In this document: one piece after another, positions 7,142-57,682 of the stretch
Numbering within the stretch: the stretch's first letter is position 1
How the letters are laid out: each line of letters opens with the position of its first letter
Source of the DNA: a bacterium
GTDB lineage: Bacteria > Electryoneota > AABM5-125-24 > Hatepunaeales > Hatepunaeaceae
NCBI GenBank assembly: GCA_025774605.1
Contig: JALGVR010000001.1
Location: 2,634-66,633 of the forward strand
Length of the DNA stretch: 64,000 nucleotides
Direction of reading: 5' to 3'
Program-made: the position numbers and the translations under genes
Notes under the pieces: model-generated
Seen by the model: the letters and a program-made list of their open reading frames with translations, nothing else
The model's database searches: none
What the model was told of the DNA's origin: nothing

Positions 7142-7245
7142 GGCGGGCGGACGTTCCTGTCCGCCCGGGTGGTTGCGGGTGGTAGTTTTTACGGGCAGGA
7201 ATTTCCGCCCTCCAGGTTGCGCCCGGAATATTAATTGCACTCCTT
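7142..7245. repeat. Repeat family C: two GC-rich hairpins (ggcgggcggacgttcctgtccgcccgg; cgggcaggaatttccgccctccagg) followed by ATTAATTGCACTCCTT.
   Basis: A second copy lies at 50236-50300 (perfect palindrome cctggagggcggacaggaatgtccgccctccagg plus an identical 16-mer). Confidence 0.55.
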
Positions 7246-8614: not shown

Positions 8615-8750
8615 TTTCACGCCCCTGTTTAGCAAGAATAATCTCATTTAATTCTTGACTTGATCTGATGAGATGTTTAACTTTCAATTAATTCCGGGCG
8701 GCTTCGTGAACTGCATCCAATCCGTTGTTTTACCCTTTTTGGGAGGATCT

Positions 8751-11700
8751 ATGAAATCTTACCTTTCGTTAACTTTTTACCTGGTGTTGGTCGCCTTCCT
8801 GGTTTTCCAGCCGCCACAGGCGGGATCGACACCTGAAGGAAGCGCAATCAGTTACGATCTGATCAAACATAAGGTTATGAGCGGCATTTCCCTGCAACCA
8901 GCCGAGCAGGAATTTTGGCGGAAAGTACAGAGCGAGGGAAAACCGGCAAAGCCTGCTCAACGGGGACCCCGCCGCGATGACCGGGGCGGTCCCGACGACT
9001 TTGGTTACCGTTGGGTTGATTCCGATGAAAATGGCGGTCCGGAATATGAGTGGATCGACATCAGTGATTTCGACGACGTCGTCAACATCAATGGCGTCGG
9101 CGATGACACCAACCACGGTCCCTATGAGCTGGGTTTTGATTTTCCTTACTATGACAACGAGTTCGATCGGATCCGGTACTGCTCGAACGGGTGGGCTTCC
9201 TTCACCAACTCCACTTCAATTTACAACTTTCAGAACTTTGATTTACCCTCGAGGAATCTTCCCGAGAATCTGCTCGCCGTATGTTTGACCGACTGGAATC
9301 CCAATAACGGCGGCGGCACATACATGTTCTGGACGGACGAGGACATGGCGGTGCTGACCTGGGAGAACATCCCCCACATCGACCAGGGGCATGCCCGCTG
9401 GACCTTCCAGATCATACTGACGCCCAACGGGATGATCAAGTATCAGTACGCCCAGATCAATCAGCTCCAGAGAAACACCCTGATCGGATTTCAGAATGAC
9501 GACCAGAACGACGGACTTACCATATATCAGGGCAACGGGGGCAATCTCGACGAGGAGTACGCCATCCGGATCAGCGCCGCGATGGGCTGGCTGACCGGAA
9601 CGGTTACCGATCTGGAAACCGACGAGCCGATCGAGGGCGCGGCGATCACCCTTTCCGACGGTAACCAGGCGGAAACAGACGAAGACGGCGTCTATTGGTT
9701 TGACGAAATCCAGGCTGATCCCTATACCGCCACAGCCAGCATGTACGGCTATAACCCGGTAACCAGCGATGAATTCGAGATTGCCGATCAGGAGACCACC
9801 CTGGTCGATTTCAGCCTGCCGCATCCGGAGATCAGGCTTGACGTGGATGAGTATATAGTTGAGCTCGATCCCCAGCAGACTCAGGAGAACGAGTTTAATA
9901 TCATCAACGAGGGGAATGGTGAACTGACATTCGACTCGTATTTCACCGTCCCGCGTGAAGAGAGACGCGATCCTGCCGGAGACATCCATTTCGATTTGCC
10001 TGTCAGCCAGATAACCGAAGAGATGAACTTCCGGGGTTTGACAAGCGACGGTAACAACCTCTATCTCAGCGGTTCCAACAACCTGGATGATCCCAACTAC
10101 ATCTATGTTTTCGACCGGGAGGGCGAGTATATCCGGCGGTTCGAGCAGCCGGTCGAAGACCCGTCTTCGATCGGAATGCGCGGTCTTGCCTGTGACGGCA
10201 ACTACCTCTACGGTTCCGACGGTCCGACCATAACCCAGTTCACAACCGACGGTGAAGTGGTGGCTCAGATACAGAGCCCCTACGATCCCTCTCGCTACAT
10301 CAACTATGATCCGGAGACCGGTCATTTGTGGATAGGTGAACGTATCGGCGATATAACCGAGATCGACCGCGAGGGCAATGTTCTGACGGAGCTCGACATC
10401 GACATGCGCATCTACGGCATGGCTTGGCATCCGGCGGATCTGGACGGATACAACATATACGTTATCAACAGGCTGGAGGATAACGAGGAGTGCCAGCATT
10501 CGATCTTCAAGGTCAACCCCGAAAACGGAGATGTCCGGCATGTGATGGATCTGCACACGGGCGAGGGTGATCAATCGCTCGACCTGGAGATCACCAATGC
10601 CTATAATCCACTGATCTGGCTGGGCATCGGTCTGGTTGAGAACGATCGCGCCGATCGTGCGGTCGGCTTTGAGATCGAGCTCAATACGACCTGGGTGGAG
10701 ATCGACCCGATGGCGGGCACGGTCGATCCCGATTCCGAACAGCCGGTCTCAGCGACCTTCCGCTCCGGAAACTGGATGCCCGGCACCTATGACCTGGTCC
10801 TCATCATCGAACACAACGCGGCGGGTGATGACCTGGAGCTGCCGCTGACCATGTCGGTTACGGACGCGGGGCTTGAACCGGAGCACTTTGAATTCGCGGT
10901 AACCGGCATCGAGCACAGGTTCACGATCAACGCGGTGCAGCTGCGGGGTCAGCGCGCCTCCTATGGCGACGAGATCGGCATCTTCACTCCCGATGGTCTA
11001 TGCGTCGGCGCCTCGCGCTGGTTCGACCAGGTCACCACTGTCACCGCCTACGGTGATGATCCGGAAACAGGCGAGACTGACGGCTTCGAAGATGGGGAAG
11101 AGCCGGCCTTCAAGGTTTATGACGTCAGCGCCGGTTTGGAGTTCGACGCCGAGTTTACAAGATCATCCGGTGACGAAACCTTCCAGCCGGACGGTTTCAC
11201 GAGGGGAACGCTGTCGGTCGCCGGTCATGCCGTGGAGCAGGTGTTCGACCTGCCGATCGGCTGGAGCCTGATCTCCTCGTACCTGATTCTCGACCGCCAC
11301 GACATCGATTTTATATTCGCCGACCTGGTTGAACGGGACGTTCTGATCATGCTGAAGGATGGCGAGGGTCATTTCTACCGTCCGGATTACGGCTTCGACA
11401 ACATCGAGGAGTGGCGGGAAACTCAAGGCTACCAGATCAAACTCCGGCAGAATGACAGCTTCAGCCTGAGCGGTGAGAGGCAGGAGGCGGACGCGCCGAT
11501 CGACCTCGTCCAGGGCTGGAACCTCATCACCTACTTCCCTGACTGGGAGATGCCGGCGCCGACGGCATTCGCCGGATTGGGTGACAACCTGATTATCGCC
11601 AAGGATGGACACGGTAATTTCTACATACCTGCATGGGATTTTTCCAACATGGGCAACCTTTCAGAGGATAACGGTTACTATATCAAGGTTGATGAAGGCG

Positions 11701-12371
11701 TGGAATTCCACTATCCTCAGGAGGAAGAGGCCGCCGCCTTATCAATGCCCGCTCGGCGGCTTAATCGTCTTAATCCGGTTGCGCCGACGGACAACAATAT
11801 GTCATTGCTCGTTCTTTCAGCCGGCGAATACGGCGGGTGCGACCTTGCCGTGGTGGACGCTTCAGGTCGGATCTGCGGCGCGGCGTGTCTGAACGAAAAC
11901 AGCCCGACCGGTCTGGCTGTCTGGGGCGACGACCCGACCACGTCTGAGCTCGAGGGGCCCGTTGAAGGAGACCGCCTGCATCTGGTTATCCATAGGGATA
12001 ACGGGAAGCCGGAAAACGTCTTCTTCAATCCGGTTTCCGGTGAGCTCGTTTACCGGATTGACGGCTTCACGGCGATTGAAGCCTCCGCGCCGCGATCGGC
12101 CGTTCCCGGTGATTTTTACCTCGACGGCGCATATCCCAATCCGTTCAACGATCAGACCGTGGTGAAGTTCGGTCTGGCGGAGTCGGGCGATGTGAAACTG
12201 ACGATGTATGACCTTGCCGGAAGACTGGTTGATGTGCTGATTTCGGGTCGGATGTCGGCCGGTCATCATGCGGTCACATGGCATCCGCGGGGGCTGACTT
12301 CGGGCATGTATCTCCTGAAACTCGAAGCATCCAACCACACAGGAATCGTCAAGGTCCTGCTGCTCAGATAA
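8751..12371 (+). CDS. Large (about 1200 aa) acidic secreted protein. It has a signal peptide, a carboxypeptidase-regulatory-like beta-sandwich, NHL/beta-propeller-like repeats and a C-terminal T9SS (Por) sorting domain.
   Basis: The start was moved to MKSYLSLTFYLVLVAFLV (SD gggagga upstream). It contains GTVTDLETDEPIEGAAITLSDG..DGVYWF (CarbopepD_reg-like). The C-terminal 80 aa (YPNPFNDQTVVKFGL...MYLLKLEASNHTGIVKVLLLR) match the T9SS CTD pattern. Confidence 0.65.
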   Translation: MKSYLSLTFYLVLVAFLVFQPPQAGSTPEGSAISYDLIKHKVMSGISLQPAEQEFWRKVQSEGKPAKPAQRGPRRDDRGGPDDFGYRWVDSDENGGPEYEWIDISDFDDVVNINGVGDDTNHGPYELGFDFPYYDNEFDRIRYCSNGWASFTNSTSIYNFQNFDLPSRNLPENLLAVCLTDWNPNNGGGTYMFWTDEDMAVLTWENIPHIDQGHARWTFQIILTPNGMIKYQYAQINQLQRNTLIGFQNDDQNDGLTIYQGNGGNLDEEYAIRISAAMGWLTGTVTDLETDEPIEGAAITLSDGNQAETDEDGVYWFDEIQADPYTATASMYGYNPVTSDEFEIADQETTLVDFSLPHPEIRLDVDEYIVELDPQQTQENEFNIINEGNGELTFDSYFTVPREERRDPAGDIHFDLPVSQITEEMNFRGLTSDGNNLYLSGSNNLDDPNYIYVFDREGEYIRRFEQPVEDPSSIGMRGLACDGNYLYGSDGPTITQFTTDGEVVAQIQSPYDPSRYINYDPETGHLWIGERIGDITEIDREGNVLTELDIDMRIYGMAWHPADLDGYNIYVINRLEDNEECQHSIFKVNPENGDVRHVMDLHTGEGDQSLDLEITNAYNPLIWLGIGLVENDRADRAVGFEIELNTTWVEIDPMAGTVDPDSEQPVSATFRSGNWMPGTYDLVLIIEHNAAGDDLELPLTMSVTDAGLEPEHFEFAVTGIEHRFTINAVQLRGQRASYGDEIGIFTPDGLCVGASRWFDQVTTVTAYGDDPETGETDGFEDGEEPAFKVYDVSAGLEFDAEFTRSSGDETFQPDGFTRGTLSVAGHAVEQVFDLPIGWSLISSYLILDRHDIDFIFADLVERDVLIMLKDGEGHFYRPDYGFDNIEEWRETQGYQIKLRQNDSFSLSGERQEADAPIDLVQGWNLITYFPDWEMPAPTAFAGLGDNLIIAKDGHGNFYIPAWDFSNMGNLSEDNGYYIKVDEGVEFHYPQEEEAAALSMPARRLNRLNPVAPTDNNMSLLVLSAGEYGGCDLAVVDASGRICGAACLNENSPTGLAVWGDDPTTSELEGPVEGDRLHLVIHRDNGKPENVFFNPVSGELVYRIDGFTAIEASAPRSAVPGDFYLDGAYPNPFNDQTVVKFGLAESGDVKLTMYDLAGRLVDVLISGRMSAGHHAVTWHPRGLTSGMYLLKLEASNHTGIVKVLLLR

Positions 12372-12454: not shown

Positions 12455-12890
12455 CACATTGTCATTCCTGTGAAGGCAGTCTGTCCGAGAATGAGAAAAA
12501 CGCACCAAACCTCATCATTCCATCGAAAGATGGAATCCAGTAACACACGTAATATCAGCAACATCACTGGATTCCAACCCCCGCGTCCGCGAGGGCATGC
12601 TTCCGTTGGAATGATGAATCCCGAGACAATTTGCTATTCTCAGACAGGCCGGCAGGCAGGAATCCACTGTTTGCAGGTATATACTTCTTTCCGGATAACT
12701 GCTTCCGCAGGTGCGACACGTTACATGAGGACGCCGACTGAAGTCGGCGCTCCCCGTTCAACTGCTTCCGCATGTATGACGTTTGACCGACCTCTTCAAC
12801 AGGAACGTCCGCTCCCCGGGCTCGACCATAGGGAGCCCCGCTTAACAACTGATAATGACAACGTGAATAGTCAGAATGACAGCCTGGATG
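12455..12890. repeat. Non-coding, repeat-rich spacer of about 450 bp with several short inverted repeats. It includes degenerate family-A units (gtcattcctgtgaaggcag..., gtcagaatgac) and one family-B half-site (ggacgccgactgaagtcggcgctcccc at 12729-12755).
   Basis: Seen directly. No credible ORF. AT-rich promoter-like sequence follows (12900-13200). Confidence 0.5.
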
Positions 12891-13205: not shown

Positions 13206-15320
13206 TTGGATCAATATCTTTTAATCACACTGATAGCTGGTGTACTGGCGTTGCTCTTCGCCCTTTTCAAGGCCGGACTGGTCAAACGTCAGGATGTTGG
13301 CGATGCCAGGATGGCGGAGATAGCGAAGAATATCCATGAGGGGGCGATGGCCTTTCTGGGTAAAGAATACTCGGTTCTCGTCATCTTCGTGATAGCAGTA
13401 GCGATCCTGCTGGCGATCGCCAACGCGGGCAACCCGGAATCACACGCGCTCGTCGCCCTGTCGTTCGTTCTCGGCGCGATCTGCAGCGGCCTGGCGGGTT
13501 TTTTCGGGATGACCGTCGCCACCAAAGCCAACGTCCGTACGACTCAGGCGGCGCGCACCGGATTATCCAAGGCGTTGTCCGTCGCGTTCTCCGGTGGAAC
13601 CGTAATGGGGATGTCGGTGGTCGGGCTGGCGGTATGCGGTCTGGTGATACTGTTTCTCGTTTATACCAGGCTGATGGGTTTTGACGCACATACGCACATC
13701 GGGCTTAAGAAGCTCCTGGCCACCATATCCGGTTTTTCTCTGGGCGCTTCATCAATCGCCCTGTTCGCCCGTGTCGGCGGCGGTATTTACACGAAAGCCG
13801 CTGACGTCGGCGCCGACCTGGTCGGGAAGGTGGAAGCCGGCATTCCGGAAGACGACCCGCGCAATCCCGCGGTTATCGCTGACAACGTCGGGGATAATGT
13901 CGGCGACGTCGCCGGTATGGGAGCCGATCTGTTCGAGTCATACGTCGGAGCGATCGTCGGTTCGATGGTCATCGGCGGCTCGAGCTGGTATGTGTTGTCT
14001 GCAGGTGCGGAGAAGGCGTTGATGCCGGTGATGCTGCCGCTTGTGCTGGCAGCGGCGGGGATCATCGTCTCCATAATCGGCACCTTCTTCGTTCGGTCGG
14101 GAGAGAAATCGAATCCACAGACCGCGCTGAACATCGGCACGTTCGGCGCCGGGATTTTGATGGTGATCGCTTCCTGGTTCATCATACATGCCTTTATCGA
14201 GAGGCCGGTGCGGGTCACCGATTTCTTCGGTGTTATGCACACCTATACGGCGACCGGCGTCTTTCTCGCCACGATCTACGGATTGCTCGCCGGAATTGCC
14301 ATCGGGCTGATCACCGAATATTTCACATCCGAAAGCCGCGGTCCTGCGCATGCTGTCGCCCGCGAGAGCCTGACCGGCGCGGCAACCAACATCATCGCGG
14401 GGTTGGCGACCGGCATGCGGTCCACAGCCCTTCCGCTGATAGTGCTCGGCGCCGCAATCATCCTGGCCTATCATTCAGCCGGTCTCTACGGGATCGCCAT
14501 CGCTGCAGTCGGAATGTTGTCTACAACCGGAATTCAGCTCGCCGTCGATGCCTATGGCCCGATTGCCGACAATGCCGGTGGGATAGCGGAGATGGCCGAG
14601 CTCGGCCCTGATATCCGCAGGCGAACGGATAAACTCGACGCGGTCGGAAACACAACTGCCGCGATCGGCAAGGGCTTCGCCATCGGGTCGGCCGCACTGA
14701 CCGCGCTGGCGCTGTTCTCGGCGTTCATGACTGTAGTGCAGATCAAGCATCCTGACGTCAGGATAGACGTTATGAATCCGAACGTGATGGCCGGTGTACT
14801 GGTCGGCGCCATGCTCCCGTTCCTGTTCAGTTCATTCGCCATGCGCGCTGTCGGGCGCGCGGCCGGGAAGATGATCGAAGAGGTGCGCCGCCAGTTCAAG
14901 GAAATACCCGGTTTGCTGGAGGGCAAGGAAGGCGTCAAGGCGGATCACAGCCGCTGTGTCACCATCGCCACCGCCGGCGCCATCAAGCAGATGGTTGCAC
15001 CGGGGTTGTTGGCTGTCCTGACACCGGTGGTGGTCGGCTTTGCATTCACCGACAAGTCGGTATTGGGTGGACTGCTTGTCGGCGTTACATCGTCCGGCGT
15101 GCTGATGGCGATCTTCATGTCAAACACCGGCGGCGTGTGGGACAACGCCAAAAAGCATATCGAAGGCGGAGCGTATGGCGGCAAGGGTTCCGATGCCCAT
15201 AAAGCCGCCGTGGTAGGCGACACGGTTGGCGATCCGTTCAAGGATACCGCAGGCCCATCGCTGAATATTCTCATCAAGTTAATGAGTGTCGTTTCGTTGG
15301 TTATTGCGCCCCTGTTGTGA
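13206..15320 (+). CDS. hppA: Membrane-bound proton/sodium-translocating pyrophosphatase (TTG start).
   Basis: 704 aa with about 16 [11 protein letters not shown] and [10 protein letters not shown] signature motifs of H+-PPase. Confidence 0.9.
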
Positions 15321-39843: not shown

Positions 39844-40092
39844 GATCCGTCCGATGCCCTGTGTGTCCGGAGGTGGTTTTTCAGCGTTTTATTTATGGGG
39901 CGGCACTCGGGGTGATTATATCGAACGGGGCGCTTGACATCGCATTTCGCACTTACCAAGGGATTGCAGTTAACGGTGAACTTTGACGATCCCCCGCATT
40001 CTCCCTTACGTCAATGGGGGGGGGGTGTACAAATGCAGAGAACAATCTGCCCCCATTAATATTTCGGGGGCAACTTATGGTTCCATTTCCAC

Positions 40093-40226
40093 ATGTCATT
40101 CTGAACTAAGTCATAACATTCTGAACGAAATCATAACATTCTGAATTAATCGTGTCATTCTGAACGAAGTGAAGAATCTCATTTCCTTCCATCGGGAAGA
40201 TCCTTCGCTGCGTTCAGGGCGACAAT
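40093..40226. repeat. Family-A repeat cluster: about 19-bp tandem units (cattctgaac-Naa-Ntcataa x3), then an inverted pair gtcattctgaacgaagtgaagaatctc ... ccttcgctgcgttcagggcgac with an internal palindromic loop.
   Basis: Seen directly. Homologous to 5985-6118. Confidence 0.7.
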
Positions 40227-40274: not shown

Positions 40275-40916
40275 ATGTACCTTCCTCTCTTTTTTAATGC
40301 CGACCTGACGAACTGCCTGGTTATCGGCGGAGGTGATGTGGCTCTCCGCAAGATAGAAGTATTGCTGAAAGCCGGCTGTAATCTCCTGGTCATCTCACCG
40401 CGGACTGTCGCCGGGATATCGGAACTCATCAGGGACGGGAAGGTCGCCCATCTGCGCCGGAAATACGAATATGGCGACTGTATGGGTAATCAGTTGATAA
40501 TTTCGGCAACAAGCGACAGTGAAGTAAATACGCAGGTTTCTGAGGAGGCGCGCGCCCTGGGCATACCGGTAAACGTTGTGGACGAACCTGATCTCTGCAG
40601 CGTGATTTTCCCGGCGATCGAACGGGATGAACCGCTGACGATCGCGGTCAGCACCGGTGGCAGGGCTCCGTTCATGGCTGCTGAACTGCGTGACAGGCTG
40701 AGGGGGACGGTTAAGGGGTGGGGCAGATGGGTCGAGATCGCCGGGGAGTTCAGGGAGTCGGTCAGAAAAGCCGTTACGGAACCGGCTGAGCGCGGCGGAT
40801 TGTACCGCAGGTTCGTTGCCGCGGGGATGCCTCCCGATGAGGTAGCGCCCCCCGAAGATCCCGACCTTGACAGGTGGATGGACTGGCTGCAAAGACTTGA
40901 GGACATGAACAGATGA
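40275..40916 (+). CDS. sirC: Precorrin-2 dehydrogenase / sirohydrochlorin ferrochelatase (CysG N-terminal domain type; SirC/Met8-like).
   Basis: NAD-binding LVIGGGDVALRKIEVLLKAGC plus the CysG_N dimerisation region. 213 aa. Confidence 0.75.
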   Translation: MYLPLFFNADLTNCLVIGGGDVALRKIEVLLKAGCNLLVISPRTVAGISELIRDGKVAHLRRKYEYGDCMGNQLIISATSDSEVNTQVSEEARALGIPVNVVDEPDLCSVIFPAIERDEPLTIAVSTGGRAPFMAAELRDRLRGTVKGWGRWVEIAGEFRESVRKAVTEPAERGGLYRRFVAAGMPPDEVAPPEDPDLDRWMDWLQRLEDMNR

Positions 40917-42460
40917 GCCGTGACACCTCGGAAACTGGAACCATTTACCTGGTGGGCGCAGGCCCGGGACATCCCGGCTTGATAACCAGGCTCGGTCACC
41001 AACTGTTGCAGGATTGCGACGCGGTGGTTTACGACGACCTGGCTCCGTATGAGCTGGTCGCCGAGCTGCCGCCGAATATCGTCAGGTATTACGTGGGTAA
41101 ACGCGCCGGCAGGCATTCCCAGCCGCAGAAGGAGACCAACAGCCTGCTGATCAGCCTGGCGGAAAAGGGGCTGAACGTGGTCAGGTTGAAGGGCGGCGAT
41201 CCGTTCATCTTCGGCAGGGGCGGTGAGGAGGTAACCAGGCTCAAGGAGGCGGGGGTGCCCTTCCGGATCGTTCCCGGCGTGACGGCGGTCACAGCTGTCG
41301 CTGCGGGCGCCGGCATTCCGCTGACCGACCGGCGGGATGCAGCATGGCTGCTGATGGCGACAGGTCATGAAGCTGCTTCTGCGTCGCTGCCGGTACCGTG
41401 GGAGGAGATCGCCGCACTCAGGGGGGGGACAGTGGTGATTTACATGGGTGTCGGCGCATTGCCGGAGATTGTGAAACGGTTGATATCGGGTGGAGCGGCG
41501 CCGGATACTCATGCGGCGGTGGTCGTCAGCGGTTATACGGGCGCTCAGCGGATTGTTACTGCGGAGCTCGCCGATCTGCCGCGATCCTGCGCGGAGCAGG
41601 ATGTGCAACCGCCGGCGCTGGTGATACTTGGTGACGTGGTGAAGCGGATGGATGGGGTGGGCTGGATGCAGCCGGGTGTGCTGGCCGGCAGGAGGATACT
41701 GATTACTCGACCATACGAGGCTTCCGCCGAAATCTGCGGCATACTGCGCAAGTATGGCGCCGAGCCGCTGCCGTTGCCGACCATTGAAATCCGACCGTTT
41801 GAGGATGTTCCGGGCTGGGACGGCTTTGAACGGTCGTCGGGGCGTCACGGCTGGATTGTTTTCACCAGCCGCGCCGGCGTCCAACATTTCCTGGATGGTT
41901 TATCACGGCGCGGTCATGATCTGCGCTCCCTGCATGATCTTGAGATTGCCGCGGTCGGACCGGGAACCGCTGGTGCTTTGTGGGAGAGGGGACTGAAAGC
42001 CGGTTTGGTCCCGACTGTCGCCACGGTGGAGCGGTTGGCCGAGGAGTTAACCGCGGAAAAGAACCTGCGTGGAGCGGTTGTCGTAAGGGTTCGCGGCGAT
42101 CTAAGCGATGATACGATCGAGAAAGCCGTCGCTTCGAAGGGGGCAGGGATTGTCCGGTTGACGGTCTATCGCACCATGACCCCCGAATGGGAGCCGCACT
42201 GGGTGGAGAACGTCAAGGAATATCCCCCGGATTACATCACTTTCACGAGTGGCTCGACGGTTGACGGGTTCGTCAAAATCCTCGGTCGGGGAGAGGCGTT
42301 GTCGGTGGCTGCGCGGTCGAAGGTCGTATCAATCGGTCCCGTGACGACAAAGGTGATCGAGGATTATGGTATGGAAGTCGCGGCGGAAGCCGCATTGCAC
42401 ACTCAGGAAGGGGTGGTGAAGGCGATTCTTCTTCTGGGGAGGCCGGTCACTCCTGTCTGA
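40913..42460 (+). CDS. cobA/hemD: Bifunctional uroporphyrinogen-III C-methyltransferase / uroporphyrinogen-III synthase (CobA-HemD fusion).
   Basis: The N-terminal SUMT shows VYLVGAGPGHPGLITR and GGDPFIFGRGGEE. The C-terminal roughly 250 aa are HemD-like. 4-bp overlap with sirC. Confidence 0.85.
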   Translation: MSRDTSETGTIYLVGAGPGHPGLITRLGHQLLQDCDAVVYDDLAPYELVAELPPNIVRYYVGKRAGRHSQPQKETNSLLISLAEKGLNVVRLKGGDPFIFGRGGEEVTRLKEAGVPFRIVPGVTAVTAVAAGAGIPLTDRRDAAWLLMATGHEAASASLPVPWEEIAALRGGTVVIYMGVGALPEIVKRLISGGAAPDTHAAVVVSGYTGAQRIVTAELADLPRSCAEQDVQPPALVILGDVVKRMDGVGWMQPGVLAGRRILITRPYEASAEICGILRKYGAEPLPLPTIEIRPFEDVPGWDGFERSSGRHGWIVFTSRAGVQHFLDGLSRRGHDLRSLHDLEIAAVGPGTAGALWERGLKAGLVPTVATVERLAEELTAEKNLRGAVVVRVRGDLSDDTIEKAVASKGAGIVRLTVYRTMTPEWEPHWVENVKEYPPDYITFTSGSTVDGFVKILGRGEALSVAARSKVVSIGPVTTKVIEDYGMEVAAEAALHTQEGVVKAILLLGRPVTPV

Positions 42461-42503
42461 CCAATGCACAGACATCAGATCCCGTTGGGCATGGGGGGAA
42501 AGT

Positions 42504-42701
42504 TCAAGCTTCACTAAGAAATTCCTTCTTGAACTTTTCCCATGATACCGTTTGCCTTTCCCGAAACTCCTTGCGCGCCTTTTCAACGTCGCGCTTAAGT
42601 GTGGGATCTGAGAGTATCTCGAGTGTGTCCAACAAGTCCTGGTATTCGTCCAAGGGAACACCCACGACCGGCTTGTCGCATTTGATGGTTAATGTGGGCA
42701 T
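42504..42701 (-). CDS. Phd/YefM-like type II antitoxin (copy 1; orphan, with only a remnant of its toxin downstream).
   Basis: 65 aa, MPTLTIKCDKPVVGV...LEILSDPTLKRDVEKA. A paralog of 43512-43709. The degenerate relE-like start (VKLEL...) lies at 42440-42500 with no intact ORF. Confidence 0.55.
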   Translation of the reverse strand: MPTLTIKCDKPVVGVPLDEYQDLLDTLEILSDPTLKRDVEKARKEFRERQTVSWEKFKKEFLSEA

Positions 42702-42715
42702 TGAGCCTCCAGGTC

Positions 42716-42937
42716 TTAATGTTCTAACAACCGCAATAAATCATCCCTTGTCAGTCCCGCCTGGTGCAAAATCCCAAGTAAGGTGCCCGGCGAGAGATCT
42801 TTATGTAAAGGAATGACGACTCGGAATCCGCCTTTACGCAAGCTCACATGACTGCCCTTCTGACGCACTTTCTTGAAACCGTCATTGGTCAAAGCGCGTA
42901 TCAGATCATCGCCGGAAAGAACCGGCAGCTTAGGCAT
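42716..42937 (-). CDS. hicA: HicA-family toxin (mRNA interferase, YcfA-like).
   Basis: MPKLPVLSGDDLIRALTNDGFKKVRQKGSHVSLRK...GTLLGILHQAGL is the typical HicA pattern. Overlaps the hicB end. Confidence 0.65.
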   Translation of the reverse strand: MPKLPVLSGDDLIRALTNDGFKKVRQKGSHVSLRKGGFRVVIPLHKDLSPGTLLGILHQAGLTRDDLLRLLEH

Positions 42938-43154
42938 GAGCGGGAACTCTAATGGGATAGAGAGCCACAACGGACTCCGTCACCGGCAGGTCCTCGTCGC
43001 CGAAGCTCTCAAGATAGAGCTCCACCGCCTCTTGGAGGTTGGCTTGCGCCTCCTCGATGGTTTTCCCCTGGCTCACCACCCCCAGCTCAAGACATCGCGC
43101 CACGAACCAACGTTTCTCCTTAGTGATGATTGATGTAAGTTCATTGCTCTTCAT
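42930..43154 (-). CDS. hicB: HicB-family antitoxin (UPF0150).
   Basis: 74 aa. EEAQANLQEAVELYLE motif of HicB N-domain-only antitoxins. Gene order hicB-hicA with an 8-bp overlap. Confidence 0.6.
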   Translation of the reverse strand: MKSNELTSIITKEKRWFVARCLELGVVSQGKTIEEAQANLQEAVELYLESFGDEDLPVTESVVALYPIRVPAHA

Positions 43155-43191
43155 TTTGATCCCTTGTCGGATTTAATGGTTATTGTGGGCA
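43150..43191 (-). other. 13-codon remnant/leader ORF (MPTITIKSDKGSK*) identical to the N-terminus of the phd-like antitoxins. Its stop overlaps the hicB ATG (ATGA).
   Basis: Seen directly. It shares the promoter/RBS block with antitoxin copy 2 (about 75 bp near-identical, A vs C copies). Confidence 0.5.
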
Positions 43192-43241
43192 TTGAGCCTC
43201 CAAATTTGGTGGGACGGGTATTACTGGCTTTCGTTTATGGC

Positions 43242-43268
43242 GCTGTTAAAGATCTCATTTGACAGCAC
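43242..43268. promoter_or_regulatory. Palindromic putative operator (gctgtTaaagAtctcAtttgacagcac) upstream of the leader/hicBA transcription unit.
   Basis: A near-identical perfect palindrome GCTGTCAAAGG-TCTC-CTTTGACAGC lies at 43761-43787 upstream of antitoxin copy 2. This placement is typical of antitoxin autorepression sites. Confidence 0.5.
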
Positions 43269-43270
43269 TA

Positions 43271-43522
43271 TTAATATATATCCTTACGATCACCTATTTC
43301 CAAGACCAGCACTTCCGGTTTTTTACGGTAAATGCGGTACAGAATGCGCCAATCACCCACCCGCCAGGATCGAACGCCGAGGTAAACACCATCCAGAGCT
43401 TTCCCTTGATAAGGATCTGCAGCGATTTCAAGAAGAGCGGCGCGAAGCCTCTGGGCGAGTGCAGGATTGTTCTTCATCTTCTTTAGCTGGCGCGCCACCT
43501 TGGAGGAAATTTTAAGCTTCAC
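43271..43522 (-). CDS. RelE/ParE-family toxin.
   Basis: 83 aa. ...GDWRILYRIYRKKPEVLVLEIGDRKDIY C-terminus typical of the RelE/ParE superfamily. Overlaps the upstream antitoxin by 11 bp. Confidence 0.7.
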   Translation of the reverse strand: MKLKISSKVARQLKKMKNNPALAQRLRAALLEIAADPYQGKALDGVYLGVRSWRVGDWRILYRIYRKKPEVLVLEIGDRKDIY

Positions 43523-43709
43523 TCATCTCCCTGCGCCAGAATTCCTCAAAGTCGATGCTTTTCCCATCCTCGTGCTCTTTGATAGCCGCGCGGATGTCGC
43601 TCATGAGCCGGCGGTTGGAGAGAACCTCGATGGTCTCCCTGAGAGCGTCATACTCATCTGAGGGGATAACCACAACCGGCTTGTCGGATTTGATGGTTAT
43701 TGTGGGCAT
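43512..43709 (-). CDS. Phd/YefM-like antitoxin (copy 2, paired with the RelE/ParE toxin). The start was moved to MPTITIKSDK.
   Basis: 65 aa, paralogous to 42504-42701. Confidence 0.65.
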   Translation of the reverse strand: MPTITIKSDKPVVVIPSDEYDALRETIEVLSNRRLMSDIRAAIKEHEDGKSIDFEEFWRREMSEA

Positions 43710-43760
43710 TGAGCCTCCAAATTCAAGTGGGACGGGCATTCCTGGCTGTCGCCTTATTGT

Positions 43761-43787
43761 GCTGTCAAAGGTCTCCTTTGACAGCAC
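43761..43787. promoter_or_regulatory. Perfect palindromic putative operator GCTGTCAAAGG-TCTC-CTTTGACAGC upstream of the phd-relE pair.
   Basis: Seen directly. A second copy is at 43242-43268. Confidence 0.5.
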
Positions 43788-43809
43788 TTTTAGAAGGCGT
43801 TTGACGCCA

Positions 43810-44802
43810 TTACATATGGTAACCTGTGAGTTCCTTCAGGTACAGAGCCCTCTCGTATGCCGCCGGTTCGGCAACCGATTTCTGACTCATCGAACCTTTG
43901 ACCTGGCTGATTGAGACATAATCGTGCTTCTTAAACCAGGTTGTAATATAGTCCAGCACCGTCTCCAGGTAATCGATACCGTTCTTTATCAGTGCGCTGC
44001 ACATCATGGTAGCGTCAGCCCCCGCCATCAAAAGTTTGATTGCGTCGGCAGCGGTGTGAACGCCACCGGTGGCTGCCATCGATAAGTTCACCCGGCCGTA
44101 TAGAATCGAGATCCAGCGCTGCGCCAGATGACTTGTACCGGTGTGGCTGAGGGAGATGCCTGATTTAACCCTCAGGTTTTCGATGTCGATGTCCGGCTGG
44201 TAGAAGCGGTTGAACATCACCAGACCGTTGGCGCCCGCCTCCAGGAAACGGCTTGCCATGGCGGGAATCGAGGTGAAGAACGGGTGAATCTTAACCGCCA
44301 CGGGTATTTTAACCTCAGGCTTCACTGCCTTCAGAACGTCGATGTAGTCGTCCTCCAACCGCGCGCCCTCGACATCGGGGTCGGTGGCGATGTAGTAGAG
44401 ATTGAGCTCGACTGCATCAGCACCAGCCTCTTCGATCTTGCCTGCATATTTGATCCAGCCTCCGGTCGATACGCCGTTGAGACTGCCGATCACGGGAATA
44501 TCAACCGCACCCTTAACCCTCTGTAGATGCTCGAGATATTCCTCACCGTCCAAACGGTAGCTTTCCGGTTCGGGGAAGTAACTGAGCGCTTCAGCGAAGC
44601 TGTCGGTGCCCTGGGTTGTGTGATAGTGGTGCTCCAGCGCCTCGTTGGTGATCTGCTCCTTAAAACAGTGAATGAAGAACAACAGCCGCTGCGCCCGCAT
44701 CCTCCATACGCTTGATGTTGTCCAGCGAGGTCATCAGCGGCGAAGCTGAAGGTACCAGGGGATTTTTTGCGGCAAGCCAAGATATTCTGTTGAAAGATCC
44801 AT
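43810..44802 (-). pseudogene. Dihydroorotate dehydrogenase-like (PyrD-family, TIM-barrel) gene. It is interrupted by two frameshifts at homopolymer runs (A6 at about 44765, T4 at about 44690) near the 5' end.
   Basis: The body (43810-44700) is an intact DHOD-like ORF. The expected N-terminus [54 protein letters not shown] is recovered only by switching frames twice. Confidence 0.5.
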
Positions 44803-44940
44803 TTGAATCCTGTGTAAGTTTTGAAAGTATAGGATTGCGAAGTCATTACAGATTATTTCATAGAACTCGGGTGTGTCCATGCTACCCGAAGGTGAGACAC
44901 GGGCAGCAGAGCTACCCGTGCCACACTGTCGGATATATCT

Positions 44941-45016
44941 GGACGACTGAAGTCGTCCCTCCCCTTATAATGGGGAACAACTATGCAATGGGGAGCGCCG
45001 ACTTCAGTCGGCGTCC
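44941..45016. repeat. Family-B MITE-like element: 24-27-bp inverted repeats ggacgactgaagtcgtccctcccc ... ggggagcgccgacttcagtcggcgtcc, each itself palindromic, separated by about 25 bp.
   Basis: A second full copy lies at 57610-57682 in inverted order. A half-copy lies at 12729-12755. Confidence 0.65.
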
Positions 45017-45043
45017 TTGGGGCGTCGCATAAACTCTGTTTCC

Positions 45044-48000
45044 CTACTCCTTTTCAGCGGCGGTTTCGTTGCTGAAGTCGAGCTTCGAAAGCTGTTCGTA
45101 GTATCTCCAGCGCGCCAGCGTATCCTTCTGGAAATAGTCGGATAGTTCCTTTGCCCGTTCGGGTTTGAACCTGGTCAGCATTTTGAAGCGCGTCTCGCTG
45201 TAAGCGAAATCCTTGACCGGAATTGATGGCGGCTTGGAGTCCAGCTTCAGCGGATTCTTGCCTTCCTTTGCCAGGTCGGGATTGTAGCGGTACAGCGGCC
45301 AGACGCCACTGTTGACAGCCAAAACCTGGTGCTCCATCCCTTTCCCCATGTCGATGCCGTGGGCGATGCAGTGGCTGTATGCGATGATCAGCGAGGGACC
45401 GTCGTAGTTCTCCGCTTCGATTAACGCCCGGACGCACTGCCCGTCATTGGCGCCCATTGCGACCTGCGCGACATAGACATGCCCGTAGTTGATGGCCATC
45501 ATGCCCAGGTCCTTGCGCGGGATGGGCTTGCCTGATGCGGCAAATTTTGCCACTGCGCTGAGTGGTGTTGCCTTCGAACATTGACCGCCGGTGTTGGAGT
45601 AGACGCCGGTGTCGAGCACCAGGAGATTCACGTTCCTGCCCATCGCCAGAACGTGGTCGAGACCGCCGTAGCCGATATCGTAAGCCCAGCCGTCACCACC
45701 CATCCCCCAGACGCTCTTCCTGACAAGTGCATCACAGACCTCGAGCAGATGTTTCGCCTCCCAGCTATCGATCTTCTGAAGTTTCTTCTTCAGAATCGCC
45801 ACACGATTGCGCTGTTCGTTGATCTCCGCTTCATCAACCTGCCTGCACTCGCGCAGAGCATCTGCAAGCTCACCGCCGATCTCGTCGCGCAGCCTGTCCA
45901 TCAGCTCAAATGAAAACTCGCGGTGTTTGTCGATGGTCAGGCGCAGACCGAGAGCAAACTCCGCCGTATCCTCGAAGAGCGAATTGTTCCAGGTCGGGCC
46001 AAGTCCGTCCTTATTGACCGCCCAGGGGGTTGTCGGCAGGTTGCCGCCGTATATCGATGAGCAGCCGGTGGCGTTGCCGATTATGGCGCGGTCACCGAAG
46101 AGCTGACTGACCAGCTTGACGTAGGGAGTTTCGCCGCAGCCGGCGCAGGCGCCGGAGAATTCAAACAACGGCTCGAGAAACTGCGAACCCTTAACCGAAT
46201 TGATCCTGACCTTGGTGCGGTCGACAACCGGCAGGCTGAGGTAAAACTTGAAATTCTCACGCTCCGTCTCCCTGAGCGGCGGCTGAGGCGCCATGTTCAA
46301 AGCCTTGCGCTTCGGTTCCTTCTTGTCCTTGACCGGACAGACTTCAACGCAGATGGTGCAGCCGGTGCAGTCTTCCGGCGCGACCTGTACGGTGTATTTC
46401 ATTCCCTTGAAGTCCTTCGCCTTGTAATCGGCCGACTTGAATGTCGGGGGGGCGTCTCTGAGCAATTCCGGATCATAGACCTTGTGCCTGATCGCCGCAT
46501 GGGGACAGGCGATGATGCACTTGCCGCACTGCGTGCAGAGATCCGCTTCCCAGACCGGGATTTCAAGGGCAATGTTGCGCTTCTCCCACTGCGTCGAAGC
46601 TGTCTGAAAGATCCCGTCCACCGGAAAGGCGCTGACCGGCAGGGTGTCACCATTGTTGGATATGATCGTGCCCAGGACATCCCGCACGTATTGCGGGGCT
46701 TCATCGGATACCGGTGGCGGCTGCTCGAAATCGGACGTTACGTGATCCGGCACGGGAACTTCATGCATGTGCGCCACAGCCTGGTCGACGGCGTTGAAGT
46801 TCATCTGCACGATCTTATCGCCCTTGGCGCCGTAAGTCTTCTTGATCGATTCCTTAATGTGTTCGATTGCTTCATCACGGGGAAGAATTCCAGAGATGGC
46901 GAAGAAACAGGTCTGCATGATCGTGTTGACACGTTCACCCATGCCGGTCTCGCGTGCAACCTTGTAAGCGTCGATCACGTAGAATTTCATCTTTTTGTCG
47001 ATAATCGTCCGCTGGAACGAGCGCGGCAGCGTATCCCAGACCTTGTCCGGCGGCGCGTAGCTGTTCAGCAGGAAGGTTGCTCCGTCCACCGCCGTTGACA
47101 GCATGTCGTATTTCTCGAGAAACACGGTCTGGTGACAGGCGATGAAGTTGGCTTTGTGCACCAGATAAGTTGAACGAATCGGAGCCGGTCCGAAACGGAG
47201 ATGCGATACGGTGATCGCGCCGGACTTCTTCGAATCATAGACAAAGTAGCCTTGGGCGAAGTTATCAGTTCCTTCGCCGATTATCTTGATCGAGTTTTTA
47301 TTTGCCCCGACAGTACCATCAGCGCCCAGACCATAGAACAGGCATCGTTTAACGTCGTCACCCTCGACGGAGAAGTCGTGGTCATAATCGAGGCTGAGGT
47401 GTGTAACGTCGTCCTCGATGCCGACGGTAAAGCGACGTTTCGGGTTGTCCTTCTTAAGTTCGTCGAAGACCGCCTTGACCATTGCCGGAGTGAACTCCTT
47501 GGATGAGAGCCCGTACCGCCCGCCGATGATCTTGGGGAAGGTCTTCCAGGGGGGCGTGTCAGACATCGATTCGGATATTGCGGTGACCACGTCCTTATAG
47601 AGCGGTTCACCGTCGGCGCCCGGCTCCTTGGTGCGGTCGAGAACCGCGATGGACTGCGTTGTCACGGGCAGCGCACCGATGAAGTGTTTCACTGAAAACG
47701 GTCTGAACAGCCTGACCTTGATGACGCCGACCTTCTCGCCTGTGCCGACAAGGTAGTCTACGGTTTCATGGGCGGCTTCGACGCCGGAACCCATCAGCAC
47801 GATGATCCTCTCGGCTTCAGGGTGCCCCACGTAATCGAACAGGTTATAGCGGCGACCGACGACCTTATGGAAGCGGTCCATGACCTTCTGGACGATGTCC
47901 GGAGCCGCTTCATAGAAAGGATTGATACGCTCGCGCGCCTGGAAGAACACATCCGGGTTCTGGGAAGATCCCCGCAATTCCGGCTTTTCGGGTCTCATGC

Positions 48001-48619
48001 CGCGCTGGTGATGTTCATGCACTTTCTTCTCGTCGATCATCGCGCGCATGTCATCTTCGGTCAATGCTTCGATCTTCTGCACCTCGTGCGAGCTGCGGAA
48101 ACCGTCGAAGAAATGAATGAACGGGACGCGGGTTTCGAGTGTCGCCGCGGTTCCGACAAGCGCCAGATCCATTATTTCCTGGATCGATCCGGAGGAGAGC
48201 AATCCCCAGCCGGTGGAACGCACTGCCATGATGTCGCTGTGATCGCCGAAGATCGAGAGCGCATGGGTGGCGATCGTACGAGCCGAGACATGGAAGCAGG
48301 TCGGGGTCAGCTCGCCGGCTATTTTGAACATGCTCGGGATCATCAGCAGCAGACCCTGCGAGGCGGTGAAGGTGGTGGTCAGGGCGCCCGATTGCAGCGC
48401 GCCGTGAACGGCTGCCGAGGCGCCGCCTTCGCTCTGCATTTCGATAACCTGTGGTATGGTGCCCCAGATGTTGCGTTTTCCTTCCGCCGACCATTGGTCA
48501 GCCCATTCGCCCATGTTCGACGACGGGGTGATGGGGTATATGGCGATCACCTCGTTCAGGTGATGCGCTACGTATGCGGCGGCTTCGTTGCCGTCGATGG
48601 TTACCTTGTGTCTATTCAC
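45044..48619 (-). CDS. por: Pyruvate:ferredoxin (flavodoxin) oxidoreductase, single-polypeptide type.
   Basis: 1191 aa. Collinear PFOR domains, including the ferredoxin domain (CTQCGKCIIACP; CTGCTICVEVCP) and the TPP-binding GDGW motif. Confidence 0.9.
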   Translation of the reverse strand: MNRHKVTIDGNEAAAYVAHHLNEVIAIYPITPSSNMGEWADQWSAEGKRNIWGTIPQVIEMQSEGGASAAVHGALQSGALTTTFTASQGLLLMIPSMFKIAGELTPTCFHVSARTIATHALSIFGDHSDIMAVRSTGWGLLSSGSIQEIMDLALVGTAATLETRVPFIHFFDGFRSSHEVQKIEALTEDDMRAMIDEKKVHEHHQRGMRPEKPELRGSSQNPDVFFQARERINPFYEAAPDIVQKVMDRFHKVVGRRYNLFDYVGHPEAERIIVLMGSGVEAAHETVDYLVGTGEKVGVIKVRLFRPFSVKHFIGALPVTTQSIAVLDRTKEPGADGEPLYKDVVTAISESMSDTPPWKTFPKIIGGRYGLSSKEFTPAMVKAVFDELKKDNPKRRFTVGIEDDVTHLSLDYDHDFSVEGDDVKRCLFYGLGADGTVGANKNSIKIIGEGTDNFAQGYFVYDSKKSGAITVSHLRFGPAPIRSTYLVHKANFIACHQTVFLEKYDMLSTAVDGATFLLNSYAPPDKVWDTLPRSFQRTIIDKKMKFYVIDAYKVARETGMGERVNTIMQTCFFAISGILPRDEAIEHIKESIKKTYGAKGDKIVQMNFNAVDQAVAHMHEVPVPDHVTSDFEQPPPVSDEAPQYVRDVLGTIISNNGDTLPVSAFPVDGIFQTASTQWEKRNIALEIPVWEADLCTQCGKCIIACPHAAIRHKVYDPELLRDAPPTFKSADYKAKDFKGMKYTVQVAPEDCTGCTICVEVCPVKDKKEPKRKALNMAPQPPLRETERENFKFYLSLPVVDRTKVRINSVKGSQFLEPLFEFSGACAGCGETPYVKLVSQLFGDRAIIGNATGCSSIYGGNLPTTPWAVNKDGLGPTWNNSLFEDTAEFALGLRLTIDKHREFSFELMDRLRDEIGGELADALRECRQVDEAEINEQRNRVAILKKKLQKIDSWEAKHLLEVCDALVRKSVWGMGGDGWAYDIGYGGLDHVLAMGRNVNLLVLDTGVYSNTGGQCSKATPLSAVAKFAASGKPIPRKDLGMMAINYGHVYVAQVAMGANDGQCVRALIEAENYDGPSLIIAYSHCIAHGIDMGKGMEHQVLAVNSGVWPLYRYNPDLAKEGKNPLKLDSKPPSIPVKDFAYSETRFKMLTRFKPERAKELSDYFQKDTLARWRYYEQLSKLDFSNETAAEKE

Positions 48620-48850
48620 TGTATCTCCTTAATTAAGGGATGGTTAATCGTTCAGGTTGTATGCAATGTAAGATAGTTGTTCTCATTTATTGGCGCCCCT
48701 GGCGCGGGCACGGAGACCCGCGCCGCTGTGTCGGTTAAAACCTGCATTGTCAATCACACCTTGACCAAGTATGCCTTTTGAATGATAGACTGACATTGTA
48801 ATTGATCAATCTCTTTCAGTGGGGCGGGACTCCGCGCCTGCCCGGATCTG

Positions 48851-50235: not shown

Positions 50236-50300
50236 CCTGGAGGGCGGACAGGAATGTCCGCCCTCCAGGCTGTGATCCGAGAGCATTAATTGCACTCCTT
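50236..50300. repeat. Family-C repeat: a perfect 15-bp-stem palindrome cctggagggcggaca-ggaa-tgtccgccctccagg followed by ATTAATTGCACTCCTT. It lies immediately downstream of the PAS-HisKA gene.
   Basis: Homologous to 7142-7245. Confidence 0.55.
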
Positions 50301-56108: not shown

Positions 56109-57530
56109 TTGTACGGAGTTGGTTTGTCTGAGAATCTGTTGAACGGCATGCGCCTCCTGGTTGTTGACGATGAAGAGATCATACGCGATTTCTTTTTCGA
56201 GGCATTGACGCGGCGTAACGTGGACGTCACGACCTGCAGCGACGGCGTCGAGGCGCGCGATCTGCTTGAGAGACATCAGTTCGACCTGGTCATCACCGAC
56301 TATAAGATGCCCAACATGAATGGTATGGAGTTGCTGGAATACATACTCGGTTCTCATCCAACCATTCCGGTTATCATGTTCACCGCCTACGGGACAATTG
56401 AAGGTGCGGTCGAAGCGATGCGCGCCGGTGCGTTCGACTACCTGAAAAAGCCGCTGGACAGGGATCTGAACGTACTGGTTGAAATAGTGCTCAAACGGGC
56501 GTTTCAACATCGGCGGTTGTTGGTTGAGATCGCGCGGCTGCAGAACGAGCTCATCGACAATAACACCTTCGACAACCTGGTCGGACCGGGTCCTGAGATG
56601 CAGCGGATACGCAAGCTGCTCTCTACGGTAGCGCCCACACAGGCGACGGTCCTCATTCAGGGTGAAAGCGGAACCGGCAAGGAGCTGGTCGCCAGAGCCA
56701 TCCACTATAACAGCCCGCGCGCCAAAGGTCCCTTCATCAAGGTGAACTGTGCGGCGCTGCCGGAAGGGCTGATCGAAAGCGAGCTGTTCGGTCACGAAAA
56801 GGGCGCGTTCACCGGGGCGATCAAGACCACGCGCGGTAAATTTGAGGCGGCAAACGGCGGAACCCTGCTGCTCGATGAGATTGGCGAGATGCCCAAGGGA
56901 TTACAAGCCAAACTGCTGCGCATACTCCAGGAACGGGAGTTCCAGCGCGTCGGCTCGAACGAAAACGTGAAGATCGACATCAGGATACTTGCCACCACCA
57001 ACATCGATCTCGATCTGGCGATCAGGGAGAAGCGATTCCGCAAAGATCTCTTCTATCGTCTCAACGTCATCCCGATCAAGCTTCCGTCGTTGTCGCAGCG
57101 CAGGGGTGACATTCCAGCGCTTGCATACCATTTCCTGCGCAAGTATTGCCGCATGCACAAGCGAAACATCAAGCGCATCTCCAACCAGGCGCTGAGCTAC
57201 CTTTCCAACTCAACCTGGTCGGGAAACGTCCGCGAGCTCGAGAACGCAATCGAGCGTGCGGTTATCCTGTGCCGCGGAGGTCAGCTTGAGCCCGCGGACT
57301 TCTTCGTCTATGAAGACAGACCGGAATCAGTCGTAGCCTCACCTTTCAGCGACATCGAGTCCGCCCCGGAGGGTTCGATGACTATTGCCGAACTCGAAAA
57401 ACAGCACATCCTCAGAACACTCAAAGCCAAAGATGGTCATCGTGCCCACACCGCTGAGGCACTCGGCATCTCCATCCGTACGCTCAGAAACAAGCTCAAC
57501 GAATATCGTCAGGTGGGAGAGAATATCTGA
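56109..57530 (+). CDS. Sigma-54-dependent response regulator (REC - AAA+ sigma54-activator - Fis-type HTH). Probably the flagellar class regulator (FleR/FlgR/FlrC-like). TTG start, or ATG at 56148.
   Basis: LVVDDE...D receiver. GESGTGKE Walker A. GAFTGA sigma54-contact motif. C-terminal HTH. It lies directly upstream of a consensus sigma54 promoter and flgB. Confidence 0.8.
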   Translation: MYGVGLSENLLNGMRLLVVDDEEIIRDFFFEALTRRNVDVTTCSDGVEARDLLERHQFDLVITDYKMPNMNGMELLEYILGSHPTIPVIMFTAYGTIEGAVEAMRAGAFDYLKKPLDRDLNVLVEIVLKRAFQHRRLLVEIARLQNELIDNNTFDNLVGPGPEMQRIRKLLSTVAPTQATVLIQGESGTGKELVARAIHYNSPRAKGPFIKVNCAALPEGLIESELFGHEKGAFTGAIKTTRGKFEAANGGTLLLDEIGEMPKGLQAKLLRILQEREFQRVGSNENVKIDIRILATTNIDLDLAIREKRFRKDLFYRLNVIPIKLPSLSQRRGDIPALAYHFLRKYCRMHKRNIKRISNQALSYLSNSTWSGNVRELENAIERAVILCRGGQLEPADFFVYEDRPESVVASPFSDIESAPEGSMTIAELEKQHILRTLKAKDGHRAHTAEALGISIRTLRNKLNEYRQVGENI

Positions 57531-57609: not shown

Positions 57610-57682
57610 GGGGAGCGACGACTTCAGTCGTAGTAATATAAAATCGAAAGCCATTTGTGGACGACTGAAGTCGTCCCTCCCC
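57610..57682. repeat. Family-B MITE-like element (ggggagcgacgacttcagtcgtag ... ggacgactgaagtcgtccctcccc).
   Basis: Identical 24-mer to 44941-44964. Confidence 0.65.

Follow-up and report, generated by a model that had tools for sequence, protein, structure and literature searches.

Hairpin repeats with a GGGGAG head in an uncultured bacterium as probable REPs of a RAYT-associated family

We analysed a 64-kb stretch of bacterial DNA (referred to throughout as the window), which contains exactly five copies of a short palindromic repeat unit, arranged as a singleton (12729-12755) and two inverted pairs (44941-45016 and 57610-57682). All five units are intergenic. The singleton lies downstream of the canonical terminator of ORF 8673-12371, which encodes a T9SS-tail protein, and upstream of the H+-PPase gene (13206-15320). 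The stop codon of the gene for pyruvate:ferredoxin oxidoreductase (por, 45044-48619, minus strand) is followed after 28 nt by the first pair, and beyond this pair there is a promoter-like site followed by a dihydroorotate-dehydrogenase-like (DHODH-like) gene. The second pair stands 80 nt beyond the end of a gene for a sigma-54 response regulator (56109-57530), and both pairs thus lie where a preliminary description of this DNA had placed them, downstream of por and of the sigma-54 regulator.

Each unit, 24-27 nt long in the window, consists of an 8-bp perfect stem containing the core CGACTGAAGTCG and followed by an unpaired CTCCCC tag, and reads on the opposite strand as GGGGAG followed by the hairpin. 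The hairpin itself is composed of the core CGACT-GA-AGTCG and of three variable, compensating outer pairs (Table 1). The preliminary description had reported inverted repeats of about 25 bp that are each palindromic, and this structure is present at all three places, with spacers of 25 nt in both pairs. The 24-mer said to be identical at two loci 12.7 kb apart is indeed common to 44941-44964 and 57659-57682 (24/24 nt, 12,718 bp apart), and what had been called a half-site at 12729-12755 is a full solitary unit, identical at 27 of 27 nt to the reverse complement of 44990-45016. The pair at 57610-57682 had been regarded as a copy of the element at 44941-45016, but the CTCCCC/GGGGAG tags of the latter point inward (tail-to-tail) and its arms are of two stem types, whereas the tags of the former point outward (head-to-head). 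Because of this opposite orientation, we consider 57610-57682 to be another arrangement of the same unit rather than a copy of the first element. Repetitive extragenic palindromes of the REP type, the name used in Table 1, are short hairpin-forming repeats that occur alone or as inverted pairs and are thought to be spread by a domesticated tyrosine transposase (RAYT).

Table 1. Repeat units and spacers in the window, with scores from the covariance model described in the text.
Feature	Position	Strand	Sequence	Remarks
Solitary REP unit, 'long' stem	12729-12755	+	GGACGCCGACTGAAGTCGGCGCTCCCC	42.1 bits, E=1.9e-07; GGA-CGCCGACT-GA-AGTCGGCG-CTCCCC, 8-bp perfect stem, 2-nt loop, 3' CTCCCC tag
REP unit, 'short' stem, left arm of tail-to-tail pair	44941-44964	+	GGACGACTGAAGTCGTCCCTCCCC	41.0 bits; GGACGACT-GA-AGTCGTCC-CTCCCC
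Spacer of tail-to-tail pair	44965-44989	.	ttataatggggaacaactatgcaat	25 nt
REP unit, 'long' type, right arm of tail-to-tail heterodimer	44990-45016	-	GGGGAGCGCCGACTTCAGTCGGCGTCC	42.8 bits, E=1.4e-07
REP unit, short-type variant, left arm of head-to-head pair	57610-57633	-	CTACGACTGAAGTCGTCGCTCCCC	38.7 bits
Spacer of head-to-head pair	57634-57658	.		25 nt; pair as a whole 73 nt
REP unit, short type, right arm of head-to-head pair	57659-57682	+		40.2 bits

A chance origin of the units is contradicted by shuffle tests and by a covariance model scan. With up to three mismatches the 24-mer was found three times in the window (0.00 expected from shuffles), and the 12-nt core, with at most one mismatch, was found five times compared to 0.42 expected, a count reached by none of 100 shuffles. 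Scanned with a covariance model trained on 64 distinct units from elsewhere, the window gave exactly the five units at 38.7-42.8 bits (E<=1e-6), the next match scoring 9 bits, and Rfam gave no match at the gathering threshold across the whole window. CRISPR and attC readings were rejected in view of the irregular spacing and the lack of arrays.

Small duplications were observed beside several units. The solitary unit of the window stands between the two copies of an imperfect ~25-nt direct repeat (12697-12721 and 12761-12784), which share the exact 12-mer ACTGCTTCCGCA, and in three fetched loci (L031 at ~5910-6000, L041 at ~5833-5880 and L131 at 80-115) the 3' half of the unit is tandemly duplicated together with adjacent sequence. 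In L031 the duplication is in frame within a kdsB-like ORF and gives rise to repeated GERRATNDD peptides. These cases suggest that local duplication is associated with REP hairpins.

We searched a genome collection with one genome per species, plus metagenome contigs, using the pattern CGACTGAAGTCGNNNCTCCCC, in which core and tag are fixed and the 5' flank is free. Further copies, on which the preliminary description had made its reading depend, are abundant: other assemblies together hold more than 200 exact units among the matches listed. The genome collection yielded 61 stretches, concentrated in few MAGs (taxonomy labels as deposited), namely 12 loci in the unclassified CAYYHI01, often as pairs 64-67 bp apart, eight in the Desulfarculaceae MAG MTPG01, seven in the Calditrichaeota MAG MWJR01 and five in JABMRV01, with smaller unit numbers in MAGs of Syntrophaceae and Verrucomicrobiota, and the metagenome contigs gave at least 120 matches. 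Within the metagenome sample Ga0136651 (IMG 3300010330), at least 10 contigs among the matches listed carry exactly the long and short unit types of the window, and a 2.5-kb contig of the same sample (L187) is 98.3% identical to positions 42361-44879 of the window and stops 62 bp before the first pair; the window's organism is therefore present in this sample and probably has further copies of the unit. The copy number seen amounts to five units per 64 kb in the window and to 5-18 exact units per related MAG, the latter being counts from a strict pattern in assemblies of a kind that under-assembles repeats. REPs classically exceed 100 copies per genome, and the MAG counts here are below that.

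The units are predominantly extragenic: in the window, CAYYHI01, JABMRV01 and Ga0136651, open frames of 150 codons or more contain only three of 41 units, compared to 66-93% of random positions; in MWJR01 and MTPG01 about half of the units lie inside long open frames. Among 255 units (up to three mismatches, among the matches listed) there are 37 head-to-head pairs, eight tail-to-tail pairs, 11 tandem pairs and 152 singletons. Both kinds of pair found in the window recur elsewhere with their spacers, the tail-to-tail pair in L131 (23-122 against window 44931-45018, 76% identity including the spacer) and the head-to-head pair in L095 (832-903) and L003 (2730-2801), which show 78-79% identity to 57610-57682, again including the spacer. 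No flanking similarity between the window and L131, L095 or L003 was detected by tblastx. In MTPG01 (L010, L032-L034, L040, L051 and L061), the unit GGGGCGACTGAAGTCGCCCCTCCCC always stands after a second hairpin, GGGGAGGCTTTAGCCTCCCC, and before a conserved stretch of about 40 nt, and is therefore part of a longer composite repeat in that MAG.

The hairpin is under selection. The three outer stem positions are Watson-Crick paired in 87%, 83% and 77% of 207 units among the matches listed, with CG, GC and AT as alternatives, the 5' side of the outer stem having been left unconstrained by the search pattern. Across 64 distinct stems the covariation score is 0.174 compared to 0.078 for shuffles, none of 500 shuffles reaching the observed value, and 85% of cells are paired compared to 27-49% when the partner is slid.

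The por-DHODH spacer offered a comparison with a syntenic locus. In L189 (recR-por-DHODH, ~70% nucleotide identity in the genes), the closest syntenic locus fetched, this spacer measures 77 nt and contains no unit; the corresponding spacer of the window measures 241 nt, 164 nt more, and holds the 76-nt pair. The two spacers are too diverged to be aligned or to map insertion boundaries, but the lack of the pair in L189 argues against an ancestral regulatory site. The same observation bears on the proposal, also made in the preliminary description, that the double palindrome binds a protein. A dedicated operator, through which a transcription factor would co-regulate the neighbouring genes, would account for the palindromic symmetry and for the identical 24-mer at two loci. 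However, the units follow the nearest upstream genes, they recur in several MAGs and in dozens of contexts that are unrelated, and their stem bases covary with pairing kept, which fits a folded single strand and not a duplex recognition sequence. Such an operator is not supported: the unit is scattered over many unrelated spacers between genes, that of L189 lacks it, and we consider this explanation highly improbable.

An IS200/IS605-type TnpA that recognises REP-like hairpins had been suggested as a candidate cognate transposase, and we scanned the fetched loci for HUH...YxxNP open frames. Relatives of the unit flank genes of this kind in related contigs: inverted units of the family or of a loop variant enclose the gene for an HUH/Y1 protein of 145-165 aa in six independent contigs. 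In L120 a unit on the plus strand (16-46) is followed by the ORF (61-504, 147 aa), by a unit on the minus strand (542-572) and by two further units, and L152 has the same layout with three tandem units upstream of the gene. In L190 a GGGGAG-hairpin (641-671, minus strand) precedes the gene (689-1129), and a hairpin-CTCCCC unit (1128-1158, plus strand) follows it; L191 and L185 have the same head-to-head bracket overlapping the gene ends. The bracket at L183, whose protein is 55% identical, is GGGGAGCGCCGAC-ATTCCT-GTCGGCG, with the same tag and stem and a different loop, and a GTAGGG-tagged hairpin adjoins it, and the bracket at L186 (44% identical protein) is GGTGGGG-CAGGC-ATTCCT-GCCTG. The units flanking the RAYT genes carry an AGCC...GGCT stem variant and not the CGCC...GGCG or GGAC...GTCC stems of the window, and the GGGGAG/CTCCCC tag is also present in the flanking units of L185 and L190, loci that were reached via the protein and not via the motif.

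We scored two of the flanked proteins, those of L120 and L152, against curated models. Both pass the NCBIfam model NF047646, 'REP-associated tyrosine transposase' (89.3 and 85.2 bits, curated cut-off 80), and match Pfam Y1_Tnp at about E=1e-13, and the curated IS200 model remained below its cut-off (43.1 bits vs 55). The best matches in a PDB search were the IS200-like transposases 2f4f and 2ec2, with E. coli TnpA_REP (4er8) at E=2.9e-5. A homology search retrieved 36 relatives, nearly all on a single contig each, in which the HVH (HUH) and Y...NP motifs are kept; the surroundings of five of them (L183, L185, L186, L190 and L191) are those described above. A gene flanked by two inverted REPs is the defining feature of a RAYT (PMC2817692), and since RAYT genes are bracketed by inverted units in the related contigs, this feature is present for the unit family described here. 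Moreover, the RAYT homologues differ in the unit variant that they carry, and matching unit variants are expected for co-evolving REP-RAYT pairs (PMC8266576).

Two other candidates were rejected. A weak tblastn match beside a unit in L031 is the kdsB-like gene with in-frame REP-derived duplications and not a RAYT, and the 363-aa Y1_Tnp-like ORF of L021, L064 and L121 (Haloferula), which has one unit ~180 nt downstream, is not evidence for a REPtron, as it scores below the RAYT cut-off and has no inverted partner in the 240 nt available upstream. Within the 64-kb window, no RAYT was found with an approximate E. coli YafM query, the L021 protein, the HUH...YxxNP expression or the 36 RAYT homologues.

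Directly after the RAYT gene, L120 (665-1021), L185 (958-2670) and L191 (774-974) carry the same Fer4_20/Pyr_redox_2 oxidoreductase gene, whose product begins with MxQKPIIFxSWRDxPLM, and in L191 a duplication places the first ~80 nt of this gene on either side of the REPtron. The RAYT thus seems to keep a fixed place in the chromosome, which is what vertical inheritance of a domesticated RAYT would lead one to expect. The window matches the neighbouring gene only through a 42% identical paralogue, which places the expected RAYT locus outside the window.

The preliminary description had called the pairs MITE-like, and this holds insofar as they are miniature non-autonomous elements. A classical MITE would be the deletion derivative of an IS with a DDE transposase, bounded by terminal inverted repeats, moving as a fixed unit and generating target-site duplications, and the two inverted arms of ~25 nt, the short spacer, the total length of 73-76 nt and the multiple copies are what it would look like. 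Yet neither pair is flanked by direct repeats or target-site duplications, for which we inspected the flanks ...gatatatct | ttggggcgt and ...gactgccc | gcaaaaaa, and the arms are found in all orientations (solitary, tandem, head-to-head and tail-to-tail), the two pairs of the window being themselves of opposite polarity. In addition, every single arm forms a hairpin whose stem covaries, and the only gene found bracketed by the units encodes a Y1 (HUH) transposase and not a DDE enzyme. An origin of the pairs as classical MITEs is thus very unlikely.

A third explanation is that the units are primarily host structural or regulatory features, either hairpins at RNA 3' ends, where they would stabilise the mRNA upstream or attenuate read-through, or DNA sites for nucleoid proteins or gyrase, and are kept for that function and not through dispersal by a transposase. 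When folded as single-stranded DNA, the whole 73-nt head-to-head pair joins in a single long hairpin (-25.6 kcal/mol with z = -7.4 on one strand, -28.9 kcal/mol with z = -9.1 on the other), and the tail-to-tail pair folds less uniformly; over both pairs the values range from -21.6 to -28.9 kcal/mol, with z from -3.4 to -9.1. Besides this very stable folding, a host function is favoured by the position of both pairs shortly downstream of genes, by the promoter-like site for the next gene beyond the por pair and by por having no predicted canonical terminator, and Di Nocera et al. (2013, PMC3733652) place REPs predominantly downstream of coding regions. Against it, no terminator-like site was found to overlap the units, and in place of a T-run (or U-tract in the RNA) every hairpin is followed by CTCCCC, so the units are not canonical, rho-independent terminators; the singleton stands after a canonical terminator and would be redundant as one; the pair is missing from the syntenic spacer of L189; and RAYT genes are flanked by the same units. 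A host function as the primary reason for the units is less likely, although with some weight of its own, and it is not exclusive of a REP/RAYT origin.

We conclude that the units are very probably REPs of a RAYT-associated family and that the pairs are REPIN- or BIME-like and not classical MITEs, a reading to which we assign a probability of about 85%. It is based on the anatomy of the unit, the covariation of the stem, the intergenic spread in multiple copies, the arrangements and the recurring pairs, the absence of the pair from L189 and the flanking of RAYT genes. The mechanism that we propose, taken over from the homologous E. coli TnpA_REP and IS200/IS605 Y1 transposases, would involve a single-copy RAYT of the HUH/Y1 type whose gene lies outside the window; this enzyme would bind the folded hairpin and its tag in single-stranded DNA, for example on the lagging-strand template, would cleave beside the hairpin and rejoin the strands, and would in this way disperse units or pairs into intergenic DNA without target-site duplication. 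We infer that the mobiliser of the units in the window would be the RAYT of the same genome. Downstream of por and of the sigma-54 regulator gene, the pairs could fold into hairpins of great stability within the 3' untranslated RNA and may have a secondary effect on mRNA 3'-end stability or read-through.

The closest known systems are the REP/REPIN-RAYT systems of Gammaproteobacteria, such as the REP/BIME elements and yafM of E. coli, the REPINs of Pseudomonas and the SMAGs of Stenotrophomonas (PMC2817692; PMC3116915; PMC8266576). Like these, the units are extragenic, multi-copy, GC-rich palindromes of 20-40 nt with a conserved unpaired end motif, they occur as singletons and as inverted doublets able to fold as one long hairpin, and they lack target-site duplications; a small HUH/Y1 gene likewise lies between two inverted units (here in related contigs), and stem variants travel with different RAYT homologues. 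The perfect palindromes resemble the 'second group' of REPs of Corneloup et al. (2021, PMC8266576). The head, however, is GGGGAG, with GGAG next to the stem, and not the GT(A/G)G reported for all REPs (PMC2817692), and the host is an uncultured, probably Calditrichota-like bacterium of the FCB group, the best named homologue of a window protein being annotated as 'MAG: Calditrichaeota bacterium' (66% identity) and a T9SS sorting domain also being encoded.

With the GTAG superfamily (Di Nocera et al., 2013, PMC3733652) the units share a grammar of head-to-head, tail-to-tail and tandem dimers in which head-to-head pairs predominate, heterodimers of stem variants, partly conserved spacers of 20-100 nt and a mostly extragenic location, and, with the GTAG-1 type, an unpaired dinucleotide between tag and stem (PMC3733652). 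A unit of the gammaproteobacterial Alloalcanivorax (L015), GTAGGAGCGACTTCAGTCGCGAT, has the same hairpin core with a GTAG tag. The tag found here nevertheless lies outside GTAG and its degenerate forms GYAG, GYRG, GTRG, GTMG and GTGG, and we do not file the unit under this superfamily. The GTAGGG and GGTGGGG heads at the sister RAYT loci L183 and L186 indicate, on the other hand, that the GGGGAG and GTAG families are related. The common G-rich motif GGGGWSAS of the repeats that flank TIRYT genes (PMC3733652) is reminiscent of GGGGAGCG here, but the likeness is inexact, since position 7 is C or G and not A, and TIRYT proteins are longer than the 145-165 aa proteins described here, of which the scored ones pass the RAYT model. 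IS200/IS605 elements and their hairpin-ended derivatives (PATEs) have in common with the present family a Y1 HUH transposase, sub-terminal hairpins recognised in single-stranded DNA and the lack of target-site duplications; unlike in IS200/IS605, the scored proteins pass the RAYT model and fall below the IS200 cut-off, nearly every homologue is on one contig, several genes occupy the same chromosomal position, and the repeats vastly outnumber the gene.

Other repeats lie near the units. A repeat of ~200 nt with internal hairpins (12459-12670) adjoins the solitary REP and is 96% identical to positions 998-1191 of L171, from the metagenome in which the window's organism occurs; four CAYYHI01 loci match it at 85-89% identity. 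The L171 copy is enclosed by the two arms of a head-to-head REP pair, and the repeat probably represents another small mobile element, inserting into REPs or close to them. Further palindromic repeats are found at 50237-50270, 7142-7162 (minus strand), 7193-7213 (plus strand) and ~48820-48845; the palindrome CCTGGAGGGCGGACAGGAATGTCCGCCCTCCAGG has a 15-bp stem and three matches where none is expected by chance, and a unit of the GGGGCGGGACTCCGCGCC type in the window matches L131 170-199. Repeats with the same ATTCCT loop flank the sister RAYT genes of L183 and L186, and the genome therefore probably hosts several REP-RAYT pairs.

Three further features of the window were noted. The DHODH-like gene (43810-44802, minus strand) has an apparent frameshift near codon 12, at an A-run at ~44760 (gcaaaaaatcccc), relative to homologues of 330 aa. 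L187, an independent assembly, has an identical sequence at this site and gene calls for two fragments (214 and 89 aa); the gene is either a pseudogene or affected by a shared homopolymer error. Positions 42588-43792 comprise three tandem repeats of ~500 nt (segments 73-98% identical) with small ORFs; among the genes called on L187, which is 98% identical, are those for a ParE_toxin and a DUF7387 protein, and the repeats may represent a duplicated toxin-antitoxin-like cassette. Four tandem repeats of 20 nt similar to CATGTCATTCTGAACGAAGT (40092-40170), located ~100 nt upstream of ORF 40275-40916, may form an array of putative binding sites.

If the units are REPs as proposed, the range of REP/REPIN-RAYT systems is widened to an uncultured lineage of the FCB group, in which several REP families matching sister RAYTs would reside together in one genome. 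The units would explain puzzling intergenic palindromes and contig breaks in metagenome assemblies, such as the end of L187, and annotators are cautioned not to read them as operators or terminators. The GGGGAG head, which falls outside the GT(A/G)G rule, is a naturally occurring variant with which tag recognition and cleavage-site choice by RAYTs could be tested. Finally, the GGGGAG-tagged core is multi-copy in MAGs labelled Calditrichota-like, Desulfarculaceae, Syntrophaceae and Verrucomicrobiota, and gammaproteobacterial units have the same hairpin with a GTAG tag. The occurrence of the same core across phyla could mean that a RAYT lineage with altered tag specificity moved horizontally together with its REPs, or that the core is a deeply conserved module that gained different tags, a speculative proposal that we regard as rather doubtful. 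The prevailing picture is one of strictly vertical REPIN-RAYT inheritance, and horizontal movement of RAYTs and REPs between phyla, if true, would run against it.
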